The notes: generated by a model from the letters alone, not told the origin. DNA of 64,000 nt from an uncultured Gammaproteobacteria bacterium (GCA_942490655.1 CALNXZ010000003.1:39441-103440); one strand, 5' to 3'; positions 38,582 through 48,620 are shown, counted from the first letter of the stretch. Numbers and translations: made by a program.

Positions 38582-40147
38582 ATGCGAAAACGAGCTACTC
38601 GCACACGACGAGGCGGCAGCGCTGCACGCAGGGCCGTCAAAGCGACGTCCTCTGCTGCGAGTGCCGTTCGCCCGGGGCAGAGCGGCGGACAGTATCGCCC
38701 GCTCAGTGACGCCGACATCCAGCGTATCTATGCGACGGCTCTGGATATTCTTGAAAACATCGGCATCGGTGAGCCGATACCCGAGATACTGCACTACGCA
38801 TTGCCGAAAGGCTGCCTGCTCAACGACAAGGGTCGACTGTGTTTTCCGCGTGCGCTGGTCGAAGACCTGATCGCAATTTCTCCTAAAGAATATCCGCTGT
38901 ATGCACCGAACTCTGCCAATGACCTCACCGTCGGCGCCGAGAAGGTCTTGTTCTGCACGTCCGGGGAAGCGGTTACGGTGCTTGATTACGAAACGCAGAA
39001 ATTTCGGCCGACAAAGCTGACCGATCTTTATGATGCGGCGCGGCTCGCCGATCAACTCGAGCACATACACAACTTCGGCCAGCCTTTCATCGCTGCGGAA
39101 TACAGCGGTGATGTGTATGTGCATGACCTCAATATTGCCTATGCCGAACTCGCCGGCACGAACAAGTCTTTCGCACTCGGCATCGCGGTTGTGGACCACA
39201 TCGAACCGATCATCTCGCTGTTCGATATGTACCTCGGCAAAGAAGGCGCGTTTCTTGAGAGACCGTTTTGCACCTTCGGCGGATGTCCTATCGTCTCGCC
39301 GTTGCGATTTGGCGAGGAGAACGCTGAAGTGCTGGTGAAAGTTGCCGAATTGGGCCTTGTCGCCGATATCGCGGTCGCGCCACAGGCGGGAGCCACCTCG
39401 CCGGCGGCGCTGGCCGGAACGCTGGCGCAGTGTTTTGCCGAAACGCTCGCTTGCATGTGCGTCGTCAATCTCGTGCGTCCCGGTACACCGATCAATTTCG
39501 GTATGTGGCCGTTTATTTCCGATCTCCGGACGGGCGCGTTTTCAGGTGGTAGCGGCGAAGAAGCTCTGATAACAGCCGCGACGGCGCAACTCTGCAACCA
39601 CTTCGGTTTCACAACCAGCGTCGGTGCCGGCATGACGGACTCCAAGACCGTCGACGTGCAGGCGGGTTACGAAAAAGGACTCACAATGTTGTCCGCCGCG
39701 CTTTCAGGTGCGAACCTCATTGCGGCCTACCCGGGTATCGTTGGCAGCCTGATCGGTCAGTCATTCGAAGGCATGATCATCGACAATGACATGCTCGGCA
39801 ATGTGCAACGGATACTGCGAGGCATCGAGGTCAACGACGAAACATTGTCTTACGACGTCATCAAGAACACGGTCGAGGGGGCAGGGCATTATCTCGGCAG
39901 CGCGCAGACCCTGGAACTGATGAACACCGAATTCCTGTACCCGGAAGTTGCTGATCGCCTGACGCCGGGCGCCTGGGTGGATGCAGGATGCAAGACCTTG
40001 TATGAGCAGGCGCATGTGCGTGTTCGTGACATGCTCAAAGACTACTATCCAAGTTATATTCATCCTGATGCAGACAAACGCATTCGGGATAACTTCCCCA
40101 TCCGGTTGCGACCGGAGGACATGAAGGCCGGAAACGGCCGTTGGTAA
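38582..40147 (+). CDS. MttB-superfamily (non-pyrrolysine) methyltransferase, paralog 1
   Basis: 521 aa, uninterrupted with no internal TAG. The Arg-rich N-terminus RKRATRTRRGGSAARRA is followed by LSDADIQRIY..ALDILENIGI. The TIM-barrel-length body is homologous to the ORFs at 45569 and 47097. Confidence 0.8.
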   Translation: MRKRATRTRRGGSAARRAVKATSSAASAVRPGQSGGQYRPLSDADIQRIYATALDILENIGIGEPIPEILHYALPKGCLLNDKGRLCFPRALVEDLIAISPKEYPLYAPNSANDLTVGAEKVLFCTSGEAVTVLDYETQKFRPTKLTDLYDAARLADQLEHIHNFGQPFIAAEYSGDVYVHDLNIAYAELAGTNKSFALGIAVVDHIEPIISLFDMYLGKEGAFLERPFCTFGGCPIVSPLRFGEENAEVLVKVAELGLVADIAVAPQAGATSPAALAGTLAQCFAETLACMCVVNLVRPGTPINFGMWPFISDLRTGAFSGGSGEEALITAATAQLCNHFGFTTSVGAGMTDSKTVDVQAGYEKGLTMLSAALSGANLIAAYPGIVGSLIGQSFEGMIIDNDMLGNVQRILRGIEVNDETLSYDVIKNTVEGAGHYLGSAQTLELMNTEFLYPEVADRLTPGAWVDAGCKTLYEQAHVRVRDMLKDYYPSYIHPDADKRIRDNFPIRLRPEDMKAGNGRW

Positions 40148-40171
40148 TCACTAACCCGGTAGCGCAAAACT

Positions 40172-40867
40172 ATGTCGCAAGATAATAACGATGAAATCAT
40201 TCTGTCCGAGCTTTCTGACGAAGAGCTGGTCGAGCAAATGTTTGACGATCTTTACGATGGGTTGGCCGAAGAGATCGCCGAAGGTACACAGATACTTCTC
40301 GATCGCGGCTGGGAAGCCAAGAAAGTGCTGGATGAAGCATTGGTCGCCGGCATGACTATCGTTGGCATCGATTTTCGTGACGGCATACTGTTTGTGCCCG
40401 AGGTCCTGCTGGCTGCCAATTCCATGAAAGCCGGTATGGCGCTATTGAAACCGATACTCACTTCAACGGGTGCCGAGCCGGTTGGCAAACTCGTCATCGG
40501 CACGGTCAAAGGCGACATTCATGATATCGGCAAAAACCTTGTCGGTATGATGATGGAAGGCGCCGGATTCGAAGTCGTTGATCTCGGCATCAATACCGAC
40601 GTTGACACCTACCTCGCAGCGCTCAAAGAGCATCGCCCGAACATACTCGGCATGTCTGCGCTGCTCACGACGACCATGCCGTATATGAAGGTGGTTGTTG
40701 ATGCGCTGATCGAGCAGGGTATTCGCGACGATTACATCGTCATGGTCGGGGGCGCGCCCTTGAATGAAGAGTTTGGCCAGGCTGTAGGTGCGGACGCCTA
40801 TTGCCGGGATGCGGCCACAGCCGTGGAAGTCGCCAAGAAACTCGTACTCAAACAGCGCGCCTCCTGA
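40172..40867 (+). CDS. cobalamin-binding corrinoid protein (MtbC/MtgC-like)
   Basis: 231 aa. Helical cap followed by a Rossmann B12 domain with the DxHxxG motif (GDIHDIGKN), MSALLTTT and GGAP. Confidence 0.85.
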   Translation: MSQDNNDEIILSELSDEELVEQMFDDLYDGLAEEIAEGTQILLDRGWEAKKVLDEALVAGMTIVGIDFRDGILFVPEVLLAANSMKAGMALLKPILTSTGAEPVGKLVIGTVKGDIHDIGKNLVGMMMEGAGFEVVDLGINTDVDTYLAALKEHRPNILGMSALLTTTMPYMKVVVDALIEQGIRDDYIVMVGGAPLNEEFGQAVGADAYCRDAATAVEVAKKLVLKQRAS

Positions 40868-40898
40868 TAGTTGCTGTGGCGCTCACGGCGACAGGTTG

Positions 40899-41501
40899 AT
40901 GCAAGAAAGCGTACTTCTAATCGCCTGCGGCGCGCTCGCCAAAGAGCTGGTCGAAATCAAGCGGCTGAACGCCTGGCAGCACATTCGCATCCAGTGCCTG
41001 CCTGCGGAGCTGCACAATCGACCGGAGAAAATTCCTGCGGCGGTCAGGGACGAAATCAGGAAATACCAGTCCGAGTATGAGGTGATATTTGTGGCGTACG
41101 CCGATTGCGGTACGGGTGGATTGCTGGACAAGACCCTGGCCGAGTTCGGAATTGAGCGTTTGCCGGGCGCACATTGCTATGAATTCTTCAGTGGCACGAA
41201 AACGTTTATGGATCTCGCGGACGAAGAGCCCGGGACCTTTTACCTTACAGACTTTCTGACGCGACATTTCGATCGTCTGGTGAAGGTTGGCCTGGGTCTC
41301 GACAAACATCCGGAATTGATGTCAGCCTATTTTGGTAACTACCGTCGCCTGGTCTATTTGTCGCAATCAGCGTCGCCGGAACTTGCGGCGGCCGCGCAAA
41401 CGCATGCTGAGTTTCTTGGGCTCGAGTATGTTCACAAACACACAGGGCTGGGTCCTGTGACAGGAAAATTGAAGGAGCAGTCTGTGCTATGGCGAAGTTG
41501 A
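40899..41501 (+). CDS. DUF1638-like protein
   Basis: Internal ATG at 40899. LLIACGALAKEL...LPAELHNRPEKIP..VAYADCGTGG resembles DUF1638, a family seen in corrinoid methyltransferase clusters. Function unknown. Confidence 0.6.
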   Translation: MQESVLLIACGALAKELVEIKRLNAWQHIRIQCLPAELHNRPEKIPAAVRDEIRKYQSEYEVIFVAYADCGTGGLLDKTLAEFGIERLPGAHCYEFFSGTKTFMDLADEEPGTFYLTDFLTRHFDRLVKVGLGLDKHPELMSAYFGNYRRLVYLSQSASPELAAAAQTHAEFLGLEYVHKHTGLGPVTGKLKEQSVLWRS

Positions 41502-41827
41502 TCTGTATTTATTGGCGGGACATTCCTGCCCAGGTGCTTGGCCGCGCGGGTCGCACGAACAGTTTCAAGAAAGAATTGGCGCCACGATTTGCCAAGGCGA
41601 TTGATCGCGCGGCGATGCGTGCCGGGCGCGGATCGAGTGACGCCTATCTTGAGGACTGGCGAAGAGTGGCGGAGGAACTCGACGGTGATCTGGAAGCGGC
41701 TGTCATCGCGCGGGTCGCGGATCTGGAAGCGCAGTTTGATGAAGAATTTCTCGAGGCTGTCGTTAAGGCAGGCGGTTTAATCGATGTCGCGAAGCAACGC
41801 GCACAGGAAAAAGGCACCGCAACATGA
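41489..41827 (+). CDS. small conserved protein, PF13769 ('virulence factor' domain)-like
   Basis: 112 aa. YWRDIPAQV...FAKAIDRAAM..G..SSDAYLEDWRR. It overlaps both neighbours. The family assignment is from memory only. Confidence 0.45.
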   Translation: MAKLICIYWRDIPAQVLGRAGRTNSFKKELAPRFAKAIDRAAMRAGRGSSDAYLEDWRRVAEELDGDLEAAVIARVADLEAQFDEEFLEAVVKAGGLIDVAKQRAQEKGTAT

Positions 41828-42726
41828 CCAATACGGTAATCAGTTCTCGGACGAAAGAGGTTGTGATCGGTTTTGAGCAACCGTTCAGAGTCATCGGTGA
41901 GCGCATCAATCCGACCGGCCGCAAATTATTGGCGGAGGAAATGAAAAACGGTGACTACAGCCGCGTCGAGGCCGATGCACTGGCCCAGGTAGCCGCGGGT
42001 GCGCATATCCTTGATGTCAACGCCGGCATTCCGCTGGCTGACGAACCCGCGATACTCGCGAAATCCATCCAGTTGGTGCAGTCCATTACTGATGTGCCGC
42101 TGTGTATCGATTCGTCCATCGTTGCGGCGCTTGAGGCCGGTCTCGCTGTTTACGAAGGCAAGGCACTGCTGAACTCCGTGACCGGCGAGGAAGAGCGCCT
42201 CGAAGCTGTGTTGCCGCTGGTCAAGAAATACGGCTGTGCAGTGATCGCCATATCAAATGATGACAGTGGCATCTCTGAAGACATCAACGTGCGCTTCAAT
42301 GTGGCGAAGAAGATCGTCGAGCGCGCACAGGATTACGGCATACCCGCCAGCGACGTCGTAGTCGATCCGCTGGTCATGCCGATCGGCGCGATCAATACGG
42401 CGGGTCGGCAGGTGATGGCGCTCGTGCAGCGCTTGCGCGACGAGCTAAAGGTCAACACGACCTGCGGCGCGTCAAACCTGAGCTTCGGCCTGCCCAATCG
42501 CAATGGCCTGAACACAGCGTTCATTAGCATGGCCATCTCGAGCGGCATGACTTCGGCGATAACGAACCCACTGCATGCGGAAATCATGCAATCCGTGCGC
42601 GGCGCTGATGTCGTTATGGGTCACGATCCCGAATGTGCAAACTGGATTTCCGTCAACCGCGATCCGAATGCCGAGACCCGTGAGCGACGGGGTCGTCGCG
42701 GTGGTCGCAGTCGTGGCCGCAGCTGA
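41824..42726 (+). CDS. methyltetrahydrofolate:corrinoid methyltransferase (pterin-binding, MtrH/AcsE-like)
   Basis: 300 aa. IGERINPTGRK, LDVNAG, LNSV and SNLSFGLPNR motifs of the pterin-binding barrel. Arg-rich C-tail RERRGRRGGRSRGRS. Confidence 0.8.
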   Translation: MTNTVISSRTKEVVIGFEQPFRVIGERINPTGRKLLAEEMKNGDYSRVEADALAQVAAGAHILDVNAGIPLADEPAILAKSIQLVQSITDVPLCIDSSIVAALEAGLAVYEGKALLNSVTGEEERLEAVLPLVKKYGCAVIAISNDDSGISEDINVRFNVAKKIVERAQDYGIPASDVVVDPLVMPIGAINTAGRQVMALVQRLRDELKVNTTCGASNLSFGLPNRNGLNTAFISMAISSGMTSAITNPLHAEIMQSVRGADVVMGHDPECANWISVNRDPNAETRERRGRRGGRSRGRS

Positions 42727-42734
42727 CACAGTCG

Positions 42735-44711
42735 ATGGGCGATAAAACTCAACAAGATGCATTGGTCGTGTTTATGCCGTCAGGCAAGCGTGGCCGGTTT
42801 CCGTTGTTGACGCCGGTTTTGAGCGCAGCGCGCAGTTTGGGTGTTGATATCGATTCGGTGTGCGGTGGGCGCGCAATTTGTGGACGCTGCCAGATCGAAG
42901 TCGCCGAAGGTGAGTTCTCCAAGCACGGTATTTCCTCGACCGAGGCCAGCGTGACGCCAGCTGCAGAATCGGAGCAGCGCTTCGATACTCGTCGTGGTCT
43001 CGCCAGCGGGCGGCGGTTGAGTTGCCAGGCCTTGTTGCAGAGCGACGTCGTGATTGACGTTCCGGCAAGCTCACAAGTCCATCAGCAGGTTGTACGCAAA
43101 CCGCACGAAGCGCACGACATCACGATTGACCCCGTCGTGCACGCCTACTTTGTTGACGTTGCCGAGCCTGATATGCACGCGGCAATGGGTGATCAGGAAC
43201 GATTGCTGCAAGCACTCGACGAACAATGGCAGATGTCGAATCTGTCCACGGAATTGTGCGCATCGCAGGATTTACAGGCGGCTTTGAAGGCGGGCAAGCG
43301 GCAGGTGACAGTCGCGGTTAGACATGGCGAACGCGTCATCGCCGTCTGGCCGGGGCTTAAGGAAAAATTGCTCGGCATGGCCGTCGATGTGGGCTCGACA
43401 ACCATCGCTGCGCATCTGTGCGACCTGACCAGTGGTGAGGTGTTGGCGAGCGCCGGTGTGATGAATCCGCAAATTCGTTATGGCGAAGATCTCATGAGTC
43501 GAGTCTCATACATCATGATGAACGCGGGCGGCGAGAAAGACCTGATTTCCTCCGTACGCAAAGCGATTAACGAACTGGTGCTCGACGTTGCGGCAGCGGC
43601 AGAAGTCGAAACGACGGATATCGTGGAAATGACAGTGGTTGGCAATCCGATCATGCAACACCTGGTGCTGGGACTAAACCCTGTCGAACTGGGTACAGCA
43701 CCGTTCGCGTTGGTGACCGACAACAGCGTTGACGTTCTGGCATCGATGATCGCCATCAATATTAATCCAGGCGGGCACGTTTACGCGCTGCCGTGTATCG
43801 CGGGCCACGTTGGTGCCGATGCGGCGGGCGTGTTGCTGGCCGAAGCGCCGTTTGAACGCGATGACGTGTCGTTGATCGTCGACGTTGGTACGAATGCCGA
43901 GCTACTGCTCGGTAACAAGAAACGTATGCTGGCCGCATCGAGTCCTACTGGCCCCGCGTTTGAGGGTGCGCAGATCAGTTCGGGCCAGCGTGCAGCCCCC
44001 GGAGCAATCGAACGCGTTCGAATCGACAGGAAGACCCTGGAACCGAGGTTCAAAGTGATCGGCTGTGATTTGTGGTCGGACGATCCGGCGTTCGAAGCAG
44101 CAACGCAAAAAACGGGCGTCACGGGAATTTGTGGCTCCGGCATTATTGAAGTCGTCGCAGAGATGGTACTGGCGGGTGTACTGAGCCACGACGGCAAAAT
44201 ACGAAATCATGAGAGCACCGTATCGTCGCGTGTTGTCCCGGATGGGCGAACCTTTGCTTACGTATTGCATGCAGGTCAGCAGGATATCCGTGTAACCCAA
44301 AACGATGTGCGCGCCATTCAGCTTGCGAAAGCGGCGTTGCATGCCGGTGCCAAGCTGCTGATGGAGCGTTACGGAGTGGAGCGCGTGGATCGAATACGTC
44401 TGGCCGGCGCGTTTGGCGCGCATATTGATGTTAAGTACGCGATGGTGCTGGGACTGATACCGGAGTGCGACCTTTTGCAGGTTTCATCGGCCGGCAATGG
44501 CGCGGGGACCGGCGCGAGAATCGCGTTGCTAGACAGGCAGTCAAGAGCGTTGGTTGAATCTGAGGTGCGTAAGGTCGAGAAGATCGAAACTGCGATCGAA
44601 GCTCGCTTCCAGGAGCACTTCGTTGCGTCGATGGCGATTCCGGGCGGCGCCTCGGAGTCGAGTCCACGCCCGATACGACGCGGTCGACGCGGAGCGCGCA
44701 AAGCGAAATGA
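42735..44711 (+). CDS. corrinoid reductive activase (2Fe-2S ferredoxin domain plus ASKHA ATPase, RACE/DUF4445 type)
   Basis: 658 aa. Plant-type ferredoxin CGGRAICGRCQ..C. Later VDVGSTT and DVGTNAE ASKHA phosphate motifs. Arg-rich C-tail RRGRRGARKAK. Confidence 0.8.
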   Translation: MGDKTQQDALVVFMPSGKRGRFPLLTPVLSAARSLGVDIDSVCGGRAICGRCQIEVAEGEFSKHGISSTEASVTPAAESEQRFDTRRGLASGRRLSCQALLQSDVVIDVPASSQVHQQVVRKPHEAHDITIDPVVHAYFVDVAEPDMHAAMGDQERLLQALDEQWQMSNLSTELCASQDLQAALKAGKRQVTVAVRHGERVIAVWPGLKEKLLGMAVDVGSTTIAAHLCDLTSGEVLASAGVMNPQIRYGEDLMSRVSYIMMNAGGEKDLISSVRKAINELVLDVAAAAEVETTDIVEMTVVGNPIMQHLVLGLNPVELGTAPFALVTDNSVDVLASMIAININPGGHVYALPCIAGHVGADAAGVLLAEAPFERDDVSLIVDVGTNAELLLGNKKRMLAASSPTGPAFEGAQISSGQRAAPGAIERVRIDRKTLEPRFKVIGCDLWSDDPAFEAATQKTGVTGICGSGIIEVVAEMVLAGVLSHDGKIRNHESTVSSRVVPDGRTFAYVLHAGQQDIRVTQNDVRAIQLAKAALHAGAKLLMERYGVERVDRIRLAGAFGAHIDVKYAMVLGLIPECDLLQVSSAGNGAGTGARIALLDRQSRALVESEVRKVEKIETAIEARFQEHFVASMAIPGGASESSPRPIRRGRRGARKAK

Positions 44712-45559
44712 AACTACCGTTGTCCGAAGCGGAACGGCTGGCGCTGGCCAAATCGGTCCACGATGCCTACATGGAAATATTTCCAACCGACACGATTGAA
44801 GAGAAGCTCGATGTGCTTGAGCCGGGTTCTTATGTTGCGGTTACCTGTTCTCCAAGCAAGGGGATCGATGTCACTCTGGACATGTCGCAGCGTATCGCCG
44901 CTCGAGGATTCAGGGTCGTGCCACATATCGCGGCAAAAATGGTCAGAGACGAGGCACACCTGCGCGAAATTCTGGCGCGCCTCAACGACATGCCTATCGT
45001 CAGCCTTTTCGTACCGGGTGGCGATGCGACCAGGCCGGCAGGCAAGTACGGAAAGGCACTCGATCTGTTGCGCGACATAGCCGAGTTCGAGCATCGTTTC
45101 GATGACATTGGCGTGGCCGCACATCCGGAAGGACATCCCGCGGTGAGCAAGGAGTTGTTGCTCGAAGAGCTAGCTGGAAAGCAAGAGTTTTCCAACTACA
45201 TCGTCACACAAATGTGTTTCGATGCCACGATCATTAGTTCCTGGGTTCGTGAGGTACGCGAAGCAGGCATTACCCTCCCGGTCTGGCTGGGTCTGCCGAG
45301 TGTCTCGGACCGGGGTACACTAATGACAACGTCGCTCAGAATCGGAGTGGGTAACTCTCTGCGCTATCTGAAGAACCACGGCAAGATCGCAGCGCGGATG
45401 CTGCGTAACAAAGAGTACAGGCCGGATGACCTGCTGTACGATCTTGCGCCGACTCTCGCCGATGCCAAGCTCAATATTCAGGGCCACCATATCTATTGCT
45501 TCAACCAGGTTGAAAAGGCGGAGCAATGGCGGCGGCAATTTTTGACGGACCTGCAGTGA
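44708..45559 (+). CDS. metF: methylenetetrahydrofolate reductase family protein
   Basis: 283 aa with an ATGA overlap with the upstream gene. The MTHFR-like barrel sequence (EIFP..VTCSP.., VPHIAA.., FVPGGD, AAHPEGHP) was recognised by eye. Confidence 0.65.
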   Translation: MKLPLSEAERLALAKSVHDAYMEIFPTDTIEEKLDVLEPGSYVAVTCSPSKGIDVTLDMSQRIAARGFRVVPHIAAKMVRDEAHLREILARLNDMPIVSLFVPGGDATRPAGKYGKALDLLRDIAEFEHRFDDIGVAAHPEGHPAVSKELLLEELAGKQEFSNYIVTQMCFDATIISSWVREVREAGITLPVWLGLPSVSDRGTLMTTSLRIGVGNSLRYLKNHGKIAARMLRNKEYRPDDLLYDLAPTLADAKLNIQGHHIYCFNQVEKAEQWRRQFLTDLQ

Positions 45560-45568
45560 CGATACGAC

Positions 45569-47083
45569 ATGACGCGACGTAGCCACAGAGAAAAACGAGT
45601 TGCCAATACGATTCAGCAGCTGCCCTGGCGCGAGATCGTCAATCCCTATGGCGCTACCGATGTCATTGCCGACGATCAGGTCGAGCGCATCATAGATAGT
45701 GCTTTTACTGTGCTCGAGAATCAGGGCATGCGATTTCTCGAACCCGGTAGTCGCGAGCAGTTGGTCCGCGGTGGTGCGGATGTCAATGACGACACCATGA
45801 TGGTTCGCTTCGATCGCAACCTGGTTCGGGAGAAGCTGGCATTGGCGCCGTCGGCGTTCGGATTGCAGGCGAGAAACCCGGATCGAAATCTGCATATCGG
45901 TGGCAATAATGTCGTTTTTGTTTCTGTCGGTGGGCCGGCATTTTGCAGCGATCTCGACAAAGGGCGACGGCCCGGTACCTACGCGGAAATGTGCGACTAT
46001 CTCAGATTGATACAGAGCCTGAATATCGTTCACCAGGAAGGCGGCGGAGCCTTCGAGTCCATGGACCTGCCGGCAGAAACACGGCACCTCGATCTGTATC
46101 TTGCGCAACACCGACTGACCGACAAGAATTGCCAGTCCTATGCGCTGGGCAGGCAACGCACGATCGATTCCATCGAGATGGCGTGCATTGCGCTGGCAAC
46201 CACTCGGGCAGAACTGATGCGCAACCCGGCACTGCTCGCCATCATCAATACGAATTCGCCGATGCAGCTCGACATCCCGATGACTGAAGCCGTGCAGGAG
46301 CTCGCGGGAGCGGGCCAAGTGTGTTGTATCACGCCGTTCACACTGGCAGGTTCCATGAGTCCGGCAACGATCGCGGGCACGCTCGTGCAACAGACGGCGG
46401 AGGTGCTGGCCGTCGTCACGTACGCGCAAATGGTGCGACCTGGCGCGCCCGTGATGTACGGATGTTTCGCATCCAACGTTGACATGCGCAGTGGCTCGCC
46501 GGCGCTCGGCACGCCGGAGTACACGAAGGCGGCACAGGCGAGCGGGCAGATTGCGCGGCGCCTCGGTCTGCCGTATCGCTCGAGCAATACCACGGTATCC
46601 AATTGCGTGGATGCGCAATCCGCCTACGAAAGCCAGATGTCTTTGTGGGGAGCGATTATGGGCGGCGCCCATCTCGTCAACCATGCGGCCGGCTGGCTAG
46701 AAGGCGGACTGACAGCGTCGTTCGAGAAACTAATCATCGACGCCGAAATGTTGCAGATGATGGCCGAGTATTTGCGGCCTATTGTTATGAATGATGATGA
46801 GCTTGCGTTGGATGCGATTGCAGAAGTCGGGCCGGGCGGTCATCACTTCGGGACGAGCCACACTCTGGCGCGATACGAATCTGCGTTCTATACACCGATC
46901 GTCTCGAACCGACAGAATTTCGAAGCCTGGCAAGAGGCGGGCAGCATAGACGCCGCCAAACGTGCCAACTTTATATGGAAACAACTCCTAACAGAGTACC
47001 AGCAGCCCGCGCTTGATGCGGCGATTGACGAAGCCCTGGCCGACTACGTAGCAAGGCGAAAACTGGAACTCGGTAACAACTAG
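45569..47083 (+). CDS. MttB-superfamily (non-pyrrolysine) methyltransferase, paralog 2
   Basis: 504 aa, uninterrupted. The basic N-terminus TRRSHREKR is followed by QQLPW. Homologous blocks are shared with the other two paralogs (e.g. [19 protein letters not shown]). Confidence 0.8.
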
Positions 47084-47096
47084 AGCGATAAGAATT

Positions 47097-48620
47097 ATGC
47101 GACCAAAACTCAGTGTTTTATCCGACGAACTCGTGCAGGAAATCCTGACTGAAGCGAAGCGCATCATGTCCGAGACGGGCATGGAAATTCGCGGCGCAGG
47201 CATGCGCGAGCGATTGTTAGCCAGTGGGCTGAAGCTCGATGCCAGCGGCAAGCGTATATTGTTTACGCCCGATGTTGTTGATGCGGCTATTGCCAGCACA
47301 CCGAAGACTTTTACCTTATTCAATCGAGATGGCGACCCGCATGCGGAGATTGGCGGTAACAATGTTCACTACGTGCCAGGTTCAAGTGGACTGAAAATTC
47401 TCGATCACCGCACAGGTGTTACGCGTCTCAGCAACTCAACCGACTTCATCGAGTACGCGCGTCTCTGCGACGGGCTGGAAAACATCGCCTACCTCGCGAC
47501 TGCGTTTTCCACCAACAAGGACATTGAATCGCAGGTTTCAGATGCCTGGCGTTTGTACATGACGCTGACCACATCGAAGAAACCGGTCGTGTCGGGCGCA
47601 TTCAGCGAGCACGGTGTGTCGCGCATGGTTCAGATGATGCAAATGTTTCGCAGTGATCGCGCCGATTTGATCAAGAAACCTATGTCGATTTTTACCATCA
47701 CGGCGACCGGCAATTTTCGCTACGGTGAAGACTCCTGCCAAAACCTGCTCGATTGCGCGGATGCCGGTATCCCTGTCGAAATCGTGCCGGTTACGCTCAT
47801 GGGCCTCATCGCACCGGTCACACTGGTGGGTGCACTCGTGTTTCATTGCGTTGACGTACTGACCGGACTGACGATGGCGCAGATTGCGCGGCCGGGAACA
47901 CCGGTATTGTTTGGGGGTGCGCCAGCGACGTTCCACATGAAGGCGGCAAGTTCACCGATGGCCGCCATTGAAGCGCAGCACCTCAATGTTGCCTATGTGC
48001 AGATCGCGAAGTCTTTGAATCTGCCGACGCAAGCCTATATGGCACTGAGCGACGGCAAATTGCTCGATGCACAGGCGGGCGGCGAAACGTTCAGCAGTGC
48101 GCTACTCGCAGCGATCGCAGGTGTGAATTCGGTTTCCGGGCCGGGCATGCTCGATTTTGTATTGACCTTCAGCTTGCCGAAACTCGTATTTGACAACGAG
48201 GTTTGCGGCCAGGCTTTGCATTTCGTGAAAGAGATCAAGCCGCTCGATGATTTGCCCACACAGGATCTCGTCGACCAGCTGATGCGCGAAGACCATCTCA
48301 TTACTTCGCCGCATACGCTTAAGCATTGGCCCAATGAGCTGTATCTCACGCAGCCGGTAATTGACCGATTAAATCGCGAGACCTGGCAGGAGGGCGGTTC
48401 GATGGAGCTCCACGAACGCGCTTGTGCCGAAGTCGAAACCCGCCTTGCGAAATACGAGCCTATTGAAACCGATCCGGCGATCGACGCGGCGATGCGTGAT
48501 TTGGTGAAAGCCGGATTCGTCGAACAGGCGGAGCTACCCGAACTGCCGCCTGTGCCGGATAAGCCGGCGCCGGTAGTTATTGCGGGTCGTCGGGGTCGGG
48601 CTGGCAGGCGTCGGCGTTAA
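47097..48620 (+). CDS. MttB-superfamily (non-pyrrolysine) methyltransferase, paralog 3
   Basis: 507 aa, uninterrupted. There is no N-terminal basic extension; instead a Pro-rich linker and the C-tail [11 protein letters not shown]. Confidence 0.8.

Follow-up and report, generated by a model that had tools for sequence, protein, structure and literature searches.

The closest described relatives of the locus considered here are the MtgBCD(E) systems of Ruegeria pomeroyi (Mausz et al. 2025, PMC12478193) and Phaeobacter inhibens (Price et al. 2018, PMC5764234), in which a glycine-betaine demethylase or split B12-dependent methionine synthase is accompanied by a RamA-like activase, a DUF1638 protein and MetF2. 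The same folds and chemistry are found in anaerobic three-component systems (MtgB/MtgC/MtgA of D. hafniense, MttB/MttC with RamA of Methanosarcina, and MeTr/CoFeSP/RACo of Moorella and Carboxydothermus), where MT1 transfers a methyl group to Co(I) on the carrier, MT2 takes it off again, and Co(II) is repaired by an ATP-dependent activase. The anaerobic MttB-MttC complex is held by the cap and a dimerisation loop rather than by tails, and the cap domain provides the main contacts (PMC9842639). In MtaB-MtaC (PDB 2I2X) the corrinoid protein has an extra N-terminal element, a folded domain that lies in the groove of one dedicated partner and stabilises the complex (PMC9842639).

Judged from the proteins it encodes, the operon described here is a split corrinoid-dependent methyl-transfer system of the MtgBCD/RamA/DUF1638/MetF2 type, with three non-Pyl MttB proteins and one common corrinoid carrier protein (CoP). 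It lies in a 64,000-nucleotide stretch of DNA from an uncultured Gammaproteobacteria bacterium (GCA_942490655.1 CALNXZ010000003.1:39441-103440), referred to below as the window (Table 1). Like the MtgBCD(E) systems it has an MttB-family MT1, a corrinoid protein with cap and Rossmann domains, a Pterin_bind MT2, a Fer2-ASKHA activase, a DUF1638 protein and a MetF paralog. It differs from them in that all parts are encoded in one operon of nine genes, three of them MttB paralogs, and that the organism is a Woeseiaceae-like gammaproteobacterium; no MtgE, the homocysteine-binding subunit, was seen among the window ORFs. The elements of the aerobic-type MtgBCD/RamA/DUF1638 system are found together: non-Pyl MttB, separate CoP, stand-alone MtgD, RamA/RACo with DUF1638, and a linked MetF2 (PF02219). 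The three MttB ORFs match PF06253 and are uninterrupted, with no in-frame amber codon. The CoP is assigned to the MtgC clade by pairwise identities, which are 71-74% to the CoPs of S. meliloti and Paracoccus methylovorus and about 36-42% to those of a sister clade; MT2 is 61-63% identical to its counterparts in the same two organisms, and in the PDB it is closest to MetH pterin modules, MtgA and MeTr. The CoP ORF is in frame with MttB-1, downstream of its stop codon. The protein names given in an earlier reading of the sequence without database searches (the sequence-only reading) agree with the Pfam assignments.

Table 1. Genes of the operon and the charged terminal segments of their products (positions in the window)
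Feature	Position	Strand	Description
MttB-1	38582..40147	+	non-Pyl MttB-family substrate:corrinoid methyltransferase, 521 aa; Pfam PF06253, E 7e-98
MttB-1 N-tail	38585-38689		Arg-rich, residues 2-36; core tail 38585-38641
Corrinoid carrier protein (CoP)	40172..40867	+	MtgC-like, 231 aa; Pfam B12-binding_2 (cap, PF02607) and B12-binding (PF02310)
CoP acidic N-terminus	40172-40285		residues 1-38
DUF1638 protein	40899..41501	+	Pfam PF07796; without Arg tail
PF13769 ('Virulence_fact') small protein	41489..41827	+	Pfam PF13769; without Arg tail; C-terminal half acidic
Methyl-THF:corrinoid methyltransferase (MT2)	41824..42726	+	MtgD-like; Pterin_bind/MtrH-like, 300 aa; PF00809, E 1.2e-28
MT2 C-tail	42673-42723		Arg/Gly tail
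RamA/RACo-type reductive activase	42735..44711	+	Fer2 + ASKHA, 658 aa; Pfam RACo_C_ter, Raco_middle, RACo_linker, Fer2
Activase C-tail	44667-44708		basic tail
MetF2-like methylene-THF reductase	44708..45559	+	Pfam PF02219; without tail, no docking on carrier
MttB-2	45569..47083	+	504 aa; Pfam PF06253, E 3.5e-187
MttB-2 N-tail	45572-45598		short, basic
MttB-3	47097..48620	+	507 aa; Pfam PF06253, E 3.8e-76
MttB-3 Pro-rich linker	48528-48584		precedes the C-tail
MttB-3 C-tail	48585-48617		no N-tail in this paralog

Five enzymes of the operon end or begin in Arg-rich tails, and all five are present where the sequence-only reading had placed them. The N-terminus of MttB-1 reads MRKRATRTRRGGSAARRAVK, and the C-termini of MT2 and the activase read ETRERRGRRGGRSRGRS and RPIRRGRRGARKAK. 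The tails are 9-19 codons long, with a charge of about +5 to +9, and the proteins that bear them are all metabolic enzymes by Pfam. Two observations support the start codons of MttB-1 and MttB-2: the Pfam MTTB profile begins to match at residue 9 of the former and residue 2 of the latter, and orthologs share the tails. AlphaFold2 gives pLDDT below 50 for residues 1-35 of MttB-1 and about 90 or more for its core, so that this N-tail, the one of the five that was folded, is predicted to be disordered and not packed on its own core; the composition of the tails also fits a disordered Arg/Gly-rich segment of the kind seen in RGG/RG-motif tails. Recent duplication of tail DNA is ruled out, as had been claimed, since no repeat family connects the tails. 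A Tat or Sec signal is ruled out as well: three of the five tails are C-terminal, and the N-tails run into polar or Gly/Ser-rich residues ahead of the conserved core, with no hydrophobic region.

The abundance of such termini in the operon exceeds chance against a background of 55 ORFs from the window and some 940 from related loci. At least six Arg in the last 15 residues are found in three of 55 gene-like window ORFs, all three inside the operon; Arg-rich C-termini are thus encoded by 3/9 operon ORFs and 0/46 other window ORFs (hypergeometric p about 0.003).

Conservation was followed through 80 related loci from Woeseiaceae, Steroidobacteraceae, Dongiaceae, Comamonadaceae and other lineages. 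Tailed MT2 and RACo orthologs span Gamma-, Alpha- and Betaproteobacteria as well as Terriglobia and Binatia MAG contigs, and every ortholog of either protein listed from these loci, at 57-94% identity, has its tail. MT2 has an Arg-rich tail (5-9 K/R) in 75/75 orthologs listed, in most of them with a motif of the RGRRxGGxRRR type, and the activase orthologs listed all show an Arg cluster at the terminus. At least five Arg in the last 15 residues occur in 40/44 MT2, 54/57 gene-like RACo and 13/13 MttB-3 proteins, against 24/725 other ORFs of the same loci, mostly apparent Arg-rich shadow ORFs, and in no MetF, DUF1638, PF13769 or CoP. The few MT2 and RACo proteins below this threshold that were inspected carry the Arg cluster followed by extra residues and are not losses. 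All DUF1638 orthologs have at most three Arg in the C-terminal 15 residues and all MetF orthologs at most two in the last 15. Among the MttB proteins, N-tails of the RRxRGGGRxAKRAARxAR type are found in the MttB-1 ortholog of locus L008 and in a commoner MttB clade, the MttB-2 start M[TS]RRxHRxKR is kept in 14/14 orthologs, and the MttB-3 ending LPELPPxP...GRRGRxGRRRR is kept in 15/15. The sequence-only reading had taken the differing tail positions of the paralogs as a sign of selection and had proposed an alignment of orthologous operons. The comparison of loci bears it out: tails are conserved in presence, their position is fixed within each MttB paralog clade and differs between paralogs, and no true loss on MT2, the RamA/RACo activase or the MttB paralogs was seen in the 80 loci. 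By this conservation pattern, the tails are under selection and not drifting.

The tail bearers, namely the three MttB proteins, MT2 and the activase, must all dock on the CoP, and the restriction of tails to such enzymes holds in the operon, where MetF, DUF1638 and PF13769 are without one. Other genomes add a fourth tailed class, the homocysteine methyltransferase MtgE/Bmt (PF02574). Members encoded beside the operon or in its vicinity have the endings RGRGGRTRR (Comamonadaceae), RERSRRRG (Shinella) and RERRRRA (S. meliloti Bmt); the S. meliloti bmt gene lies apart from the operon and its product is still tailed. No tail is found on a PF02574 homolog of Paracoccus pantotrophus (49% identity), encoded on a replicon whose host may or may not use this CoP system.

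The carrier itself is strongly acidic (net charge -21, pI 4.3). Its first 38 residues contain 14 D/E and no K/R, as first noticed from the sequence, for a net charge of -14. Residues 1-20 form an extension missing from anaerobe and sister-clade CoPs, and the PDB CoPs 1y80, 4jgi, 7xcn_M and 3ezx align only from about residue 21. The acidic motif DLxLxxLxDEELxEQxHDDLYxGL is kept in the CoP of 52 loci, with invariant acidic positions at D/E8, D16, E18, E21, D25, D26 and E34. The sequence-only reading had set this N-terminus opposite the tails. It is no floppy counterpart of them: AlphaFold2 predicts disorder for residues 1-6 alone and places residues 11-50 (pLDDT around 95) within the helical cap, and the model together with conservation puts invariant acidic positions on a helix at residues 16-28. 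The caveat attached to the same reading, that the acidic stretch may be the start of the helical cap domain, was therefore right.

Tail-less relatives serve as controls. Two sister operons (L081 and L084) have the same core gene set, MttB-CoP-MT2-RACo-DUF1638, with no tail on any enzyme; their CoPs, of 217-220 aa, are without the extension, and the N region has a net charge of -4 versus -14 here. At least five Arg in the last 20 residues are found in 119/120 close MT2 homologs versus 4/118 in the sister clade, and the Arg cluster is missing from stand-alone MT2 homologs with no more than 55% identity. Three MT2 representatives (P0143, P0161 and P0238) are weakly basic intermediates. A natural CoP-MT2 fusion (P0142) has neither tail nor acidic extension. 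Unlike the enzymes of the operon, the anaerobic-system homologs end 4-11 residues from the core, with MtgB, MeTr and MtgA in the PDB having too few residues past it for such a tail, and start without an N-tail, and their CoPs are without the acidic extension of roughly 20 residues. Enzyme cores are about equally acidic in tailed and tail-less clades, and carrier acidity alone is clade-specific. The tails and the acidic CoP N-terminus thus appear and disappear jointly, over a small set of independent negative lineages comprising the two sister operons and the PDB anaerobes.

With moderate confidence, the likeliest role of the tails is electrostatic tethering of the partner enzymes to the CoP cap, as these sequence comparisons suggest. 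The Arg tails would form a common electrostatic leash or 'address tag' for carrier partners, catching the acidic cap by fly-casting and making separately encoded proteins meet more often and at higher local concentration. They would thereby stand in for the covalent linkers of single-chain MetH, and may also keep the cap off cobalamin during docking of the catalytic barrel. Tail-cap binding and any kinetic effect are the parts that we infer. Small, very acidic shuttles that visit several enzymes and have their encounters steered by electrostatics are familiar from acyl carrier protein, ferredoxin and flavodoxin, whose partners present folded basic patches, not disordered poly-Arg tails at either chain end. 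In contrast to the folded domain of MtaC, a short acidic cap extension would here be shared by several unrelated partners, each reaching it by a disordered basic tail.

The tails could instead bind another polyanion (RNA, DNA, polyphosphate or acidic membrane lipids) and so co-localise or condense the pathway enzymes, with carrier acidity incidental. Composition speaks for this, the tails being RG/RGG-like (RGRRGGRSRGRS) and that of MttB-1 predicted disordered. Such composition is typical of nucleic-acid-binding tails, which commonly bind RNA or other polyanions. MttB proteins are moreover oligomeric, which would provide multivalency (PMC9842639). We nevertheless regard it as unlikely: MetF2, DUF1638 and PF13769 of the same operon are tail-less, a polyanionic scaffold would repel the CoP that must meet every tailed enzyme, and the co-occurring acidic cap extension is left unexplained. 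The sequence-only reading had also raised metabolons, condensates and binding to nucleic acid or membranes; these fit less well because the acidic carrier is without a basic tail and the non-docking MetF without any.

An equally improbable possibility is that the tails act within their own enzymes, neutralising or binding acidic cores, stabilising oligomers, aiding solubility or auto-inhibiting the docking face, with no carrier contact. The enzyme cores in the operon are all acidic (net -10 to -25) and could themselves be tail targets, and in Methanosarcina the N- and C-terminal regions of MttB mediate oligomerisation (PMC9842639). However, the tail-less sister enzymes have cores just as acidic, and therefore core charge does not demand tails; four unrelated folds gained them at either terminus, in one clade and alongside the change in the carrier cap; and the low pLDDT of the MttB-1 tail argues against packing on its core.

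Less probable still is docking of the tails on a clade-specific accessory protein, PF13769 or DUF1638, that organises a complex or a reactivation step. PF13769 occurs in 65/80 tail-clade loci but not in the tail-less operons L081 and L084, its C-terminal half is acidic, and genetics in Phaeobacter shows DUF1638 to be required with RamA (PMC5764234). Yet the net charge of PF13769 is only -1 to -4, the 20-kb Paracoccus methylovorus locus has all tails and no PF13769, DUF1638 also occurs in the tail-less operons, and neither is known to partner MttB or MtgE. Already strongly disfavoured is the view that the tails are neutral, drifting low-complexity sequence, or side effects of translation signals such as ribosome-binding sites or polybasic stretches that stall ribosomes for translational coupling. 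Though low in complexity and in two cases followed by a closely spaced gene, the tails show no true loss over the 80 loci, several classes and phyla. Their length and mostly CGN Arg codons rule out a purine-rich Shine-Dalgarno or codon artefact. A coupling stall is ruled out because some tails are N-terminal, because MttB-3, the last gene of the operon, encodes one, and because S. meliloti Bmt, whose gene is encoded separately, has one too.

Tethering to the carrier cap can be extended to a shared 'address code', a doubtful version in which the tail would grip the CoP cap helix and pull the cap off cobalamin (tail-assisted uncapping). Partners would compete for one acidic handle, and tail charge and length would set visit order and partitioning among MttB loading, MtgD unloading, methionine synthesis by MtgE and repair by RamA. 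Such a code would do without covalent linkage what domain choreography does in single-chain MetH, and dilute components with frequent oxidation of Co(I) may have been the conditions in which it arose.

No description of arginine-rich tails in MttB or corrinoid systems was found in literature searches: the word 'arginine' does not occur in the full text of Mausz et al. (PMC12478193), and text searches of Price et al. (PMC5764234) found no mention of terminal tails. By its sequence relationships, the operon belongs to the known MtgBCD/RamA/DUF1638 system, and its tails look like an undescribed electrostatic docking tag.

In abundant bacteria of the sea and the soil, split B12 methyltransferases of this kind remove methyl groups from glycine betaine and synthesise methionine, which raises the question of how their separate parts locate a common carrier and use it in turn. 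If the proposed role is true, a conserved charge-complementary tag would provide a simple, testable docking rule and explain how a split enzyme offsets the loss of covalent linkers. It would also flag the clients of a given corrinoid carrier in a genome, helping to annotate the many MttB paralogs, and would be of use in reconstituting or engineering pathways of this kind.

The nine genes listed below (ORF listing and Pfam scans of the window) form one operon of the MtgBCD/RamA/DUF1638/MetF2 type, a known system that serves aerobic bacteria as a split methionine synthase and glycine-betaine demethylase (PMC12478193; PMC5764234). The window's version is distinguished by its host, a Woeseiaceae-like gammaproteobacterium (the family is apparently Woeseiaceae), and by its three MttB paralogs. 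Five of the enzymes carry an arginine-rich terminal tail, at the N-terminus of MttB-1 and MttB-2 and at the C-terminus of MttB-3, of the methyl-THF:corrinoid methyltransferase MT2 (MtgD-like) and of the RamA/RACo-type activase (RACo). The ORF listing returns all five with the sequences given by the sequence-only reading.

Genes of the operon, in window coordinates
Gene	Coordinates	Strand	Pfam or domain assignment
MttB-1	38582-40147	+	PF06253
CoP	40172-40867	+	PF02607 + PF02310
DUF1638 protein	40899-41501	+	PF07796
PF13769 protein	41489-41827	+	PF13769
MT2 (methyl-THF methyltransferase)	41824-42726	+	PF00809 (Pterin_bind)
RamA/RACo-type activase	42735-44711	+	Fer2 + RACo domains
MetF-like reductase	44708-45559	+	PF02219
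MttB-2	45569-47083	+	PF06253
MttB-3	47097-48620	+	PF06253

MT2, RACo and MttB-3 alone among the window's 55 gene-like ORFs have at least six arginines within the last 15 residues, that is, 3/9 operon genes versus 0/46 other ORFs (p ~0.003 by our own arithmetic). Repeat analysis finds no DNA repeats common to the tails, which excludes a recent duplication, as had been argued before. Since their arginine codons are mostly CGN, the tails are not by-products of ribosome-binding sites either.

The corrinoid carrier protein CoP (MtgC-like) is strongly acidic, with a net charge of -21 and a pI of 4.3. Its first 38 residues contain 14 D/E and no K/R, exactly as first reported, which gives them a net charge of -14. 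The N-terminal motif DLxLxxLxDEEL[VT]EQ[MV][HF]DDLY[DN]GLxxE is kept in 52 loci, where positions 8, 16, 18, 21, 25, 26, 34 and 37 are acidic and invariant or nearly so, and basic residues are almost absent ahead of position 32. Alignment with the anaerobe carrier structures 1Y80, 4JGI, 7XCN_M (MttC) and 3EZX (MtmC) begins at about residue 21, and therefore some 20 residues of CoP are an extension. An AlphaFold2 model built on a 43-sequence alignment (mean pLDDT 85) predicts disorder only for residues 1-6; residues 11-50, where a short helix spans 11-13 and another helix 16-28, reach a pLDDT of ~95. The acidic stretch is thus modelled as an ordered face of the cap and not as a floppy tail, which bears out the earlier caveat that it might belong to the helical cap. 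By contrast, residues 1-35 of MttB-1 are predicted to be disordered (pLDDT 34-42) ahead of a confident core.

We infer that the disordered polycationic tails of all client enzymes bind this ordered acidic face, a reading that we hold to be somewhat probable. The tails would be a shared electrostatic leash to CoP that raises encounter rates, and might also aid cobalamin uncapping. There is precedent in the N-terminal element of the corrinoid protein MtaC, which stabilises the MtaB-MtaC complex, and in the main MttB-MttC contacts, which are made by the cap (PMC9842639).

Conservation of the tails was followed in 80 loci gathered with the activase as query, one genome per species, from Woeseiaceae, Steroidobacteraceae, Competibacteraceae, Dongiaceae and other Rhodospirillales, Comamonadaceae, and MAG contigs of Terriglobia and Binatia. 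All the MT2 orthologs listed (57-94% identity) have a terminal arginine cluster with 5-9 K/R, in most cases an RGRRxGGxRRR-type motif behind a Pro/Ala/Gly-rich linker, and the RACo orthologs listed have one too, usually a GRRRRRRG-type run. The MttB-3 clade keeps LPELPPxP...GRRGRxGRRRR in 15/15 orthologs and lacks an N-tail. MttB-2 clade orthologs keep the start M[TS]RRxHRxKR, and the commonest MttB clade of the 80 loci begins with RRxRGGGRxAKRAARxAR, which the MttB-1 tail resembles; the Pfam MTTB profile itself starts inside the MttB tails. Many RACo tails (L003-L080) have a short conserved motif upstream, ...PHKTAPYPxLxxxVxLPxPK..., as the MttB-3 tails have LPELPPxP just upstream; these may represent a second linear motif, which the window's RACo lacks.

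A count of C-terminal arginines (last 15 residues) across ~940 gene-like ORFs from the related loci found at least five in 40/44 MT2, 54/57 RACo and 13/13 MttB-3 proteins. The same holds for 24/725 unrelated ORFs, mostly resembling arginine-rich shadow ORFs, and for no MetF, DUF1638, PF13769 or CoP ortholog; the tails are restricted to the enzymes that dock on the carrier. No true tail loss was seen, because the few MT2 and RACo proteins inspected below the threshold have the arginine cluster with extra residues after it. The sequence of the tails varies while charge and position stay, which in these comparisons reads as a signature of selection on composition. Tails that bound RNA, polyphosphate or membrane could also co-localise the enzymes, but this is unlikely given that MetF is tail-less and the carrier is acidic.

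Tail-less relatives were sought with a profile-free search for MT2 homologs among 1.84 billion representatives. At least five arginines occur in the last 20 residues of 119/120 close homologs (median 8) and of 4/118 members of the nearest tail-less clade (median 3); stand-alone homologs with no more than 55% identity stop 0-10 residues past the core and have no arginine cluster. Two MT2 proteins of the tail-less clade sit in sister operons (L081, L084) with the core set MttB-CoP-MT2-RACo-DUF1638(-MttB). None of the enzymes in these two operons has a basic tail, the C-terminal residues of RACo are acidic, and CoP (217-220 aa) begins directly at the cap helix, with an N region of net charge -4 by our own count. 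Tails and acidic cap therefore co-occur, and because the enzyme cores are equally acidic in the sister operons and in the window, only the charge of the CoP cap is clade-specific. An intramolecular role, or one within an oligomer, is accordingly improbable, as the cores of tail-less relatives are just as acidic. Among anaerobe PDB homologs, D. hafniense MtgB and MtgA and the Moorella and Carboxydothermus MeTr have too few residues for tails, and Carboxydothermus RACo (3ZYY), compared by length alone, has 11 residues past the aligned core versus 22 in the window RACo. The protein representative P0142 (525 aa), a natural fusion of CoP (cap and B12-binding domain) with a Pterin_bind methyltransferase, lacks both the basic tail and the acidic N-extension.

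A search for the small PF13769 ('Virulence_fact') protein detects it in 65/80 tail-clade loci, whereas both tail-less operons and the 20-kb locus of Paracoccus methylovorus (L088) are without it. Docking of the tails on PF13769 or DUF1638 could account for their distribution in that PF13769 is likewise clade-specific, but PF13769 is weakly charged and missing from P. methylovorus, and we regard this as quite doubtful. Drift or a translation artefact is highly improbable, as no true loss was seen over 80 loci. The alphaproteobacterial loci encode a strongly basic protein (L087:8204-8791, L088:8216-8806; net +13 to +16), annotated 'methylenetetrahydrofolate reductase C-terminal domain' and adjoining a long MTHFR, whereas the window has a single 283-aa MetF-like gene behind the activase. 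Between its MT2 and activase genes S. meliloti encodes a basic hypothetical protein of 112 aa (L087:10966-11304) that lacks a window counterpart.

The whole tail/cap pattern is present in the cultured Sinorhizobium meliloti and Paracoccus methylovorus: the MttB N-tail is GGGRRARGEGRGAAARRASR, CoP starts with MADDEIILEDLSDEELVQQMHDDLYDGL, MT2 ends in ...GGRRGGRAARAG and RACo in ...GRRRRRSRE. Judged from its length and a C-terminal sequence that matches, this MttB appears to be the one in PDB 4YYC. Since the homocysteine methyltransferase MtgE/Bmt (PF02574) of the split methionine synthase has to visit the carrier too, binding to CoP predicts a tail on it, and MtgE-class tails are found in three lineages. 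Four Comamonadaceae loci (L048:16422-17661, L033, L042, L061) encode, close to the operon, PF02574 proteins that end in ...RGRGGRTRR; a Shinella homolog (L085:5995-7008) ends in RERSRRRG and S. meliloti Bmt (L089:8157-9170) in PARERRRRA, the Sinorhizobium bmt gene lying ~14 kb away from the CoP operon. One Paracoccus pantotrophus PF02574 homolog (49% identity), which may or may not serve such a carrier, has no tail. The arginine-tailed Bmt fits what Mausz et al. (PMC12478193) propose, namely that the corrinoid carrier has the rhizobial 'betaine-homocysteine methyltransferase' among its clients. Several DNA-similarity hits filed as plasmids (H1, H2, H42-H46; 3.5-4.6 Mb), such as Shinella sp. 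PSBB067 'plasmid unnamed1' and S. meliloti Ak57 'pSymB' (3.7 Mb), resemble whole chromosomes or chromids, and some are nearly unannotated in that collection.

Full-text searches find no occurrence of 'arginine' in Mausz et al. (PMC12478193) and no mention of terminal tails in Price et al. (PMC5764234); searching the MtgB active-site paper (PMC13080624) by term returned nothing relevant, and further literature searches nothing on arginine-rich tails in these systems. The observation made by the sequence-only reading holds, and its interpretation is partly supported. The arginine tails are a conserved and apparently undescribed feature of a known system, in which the proposed leash would stand in for the covalent linkers of MetH.
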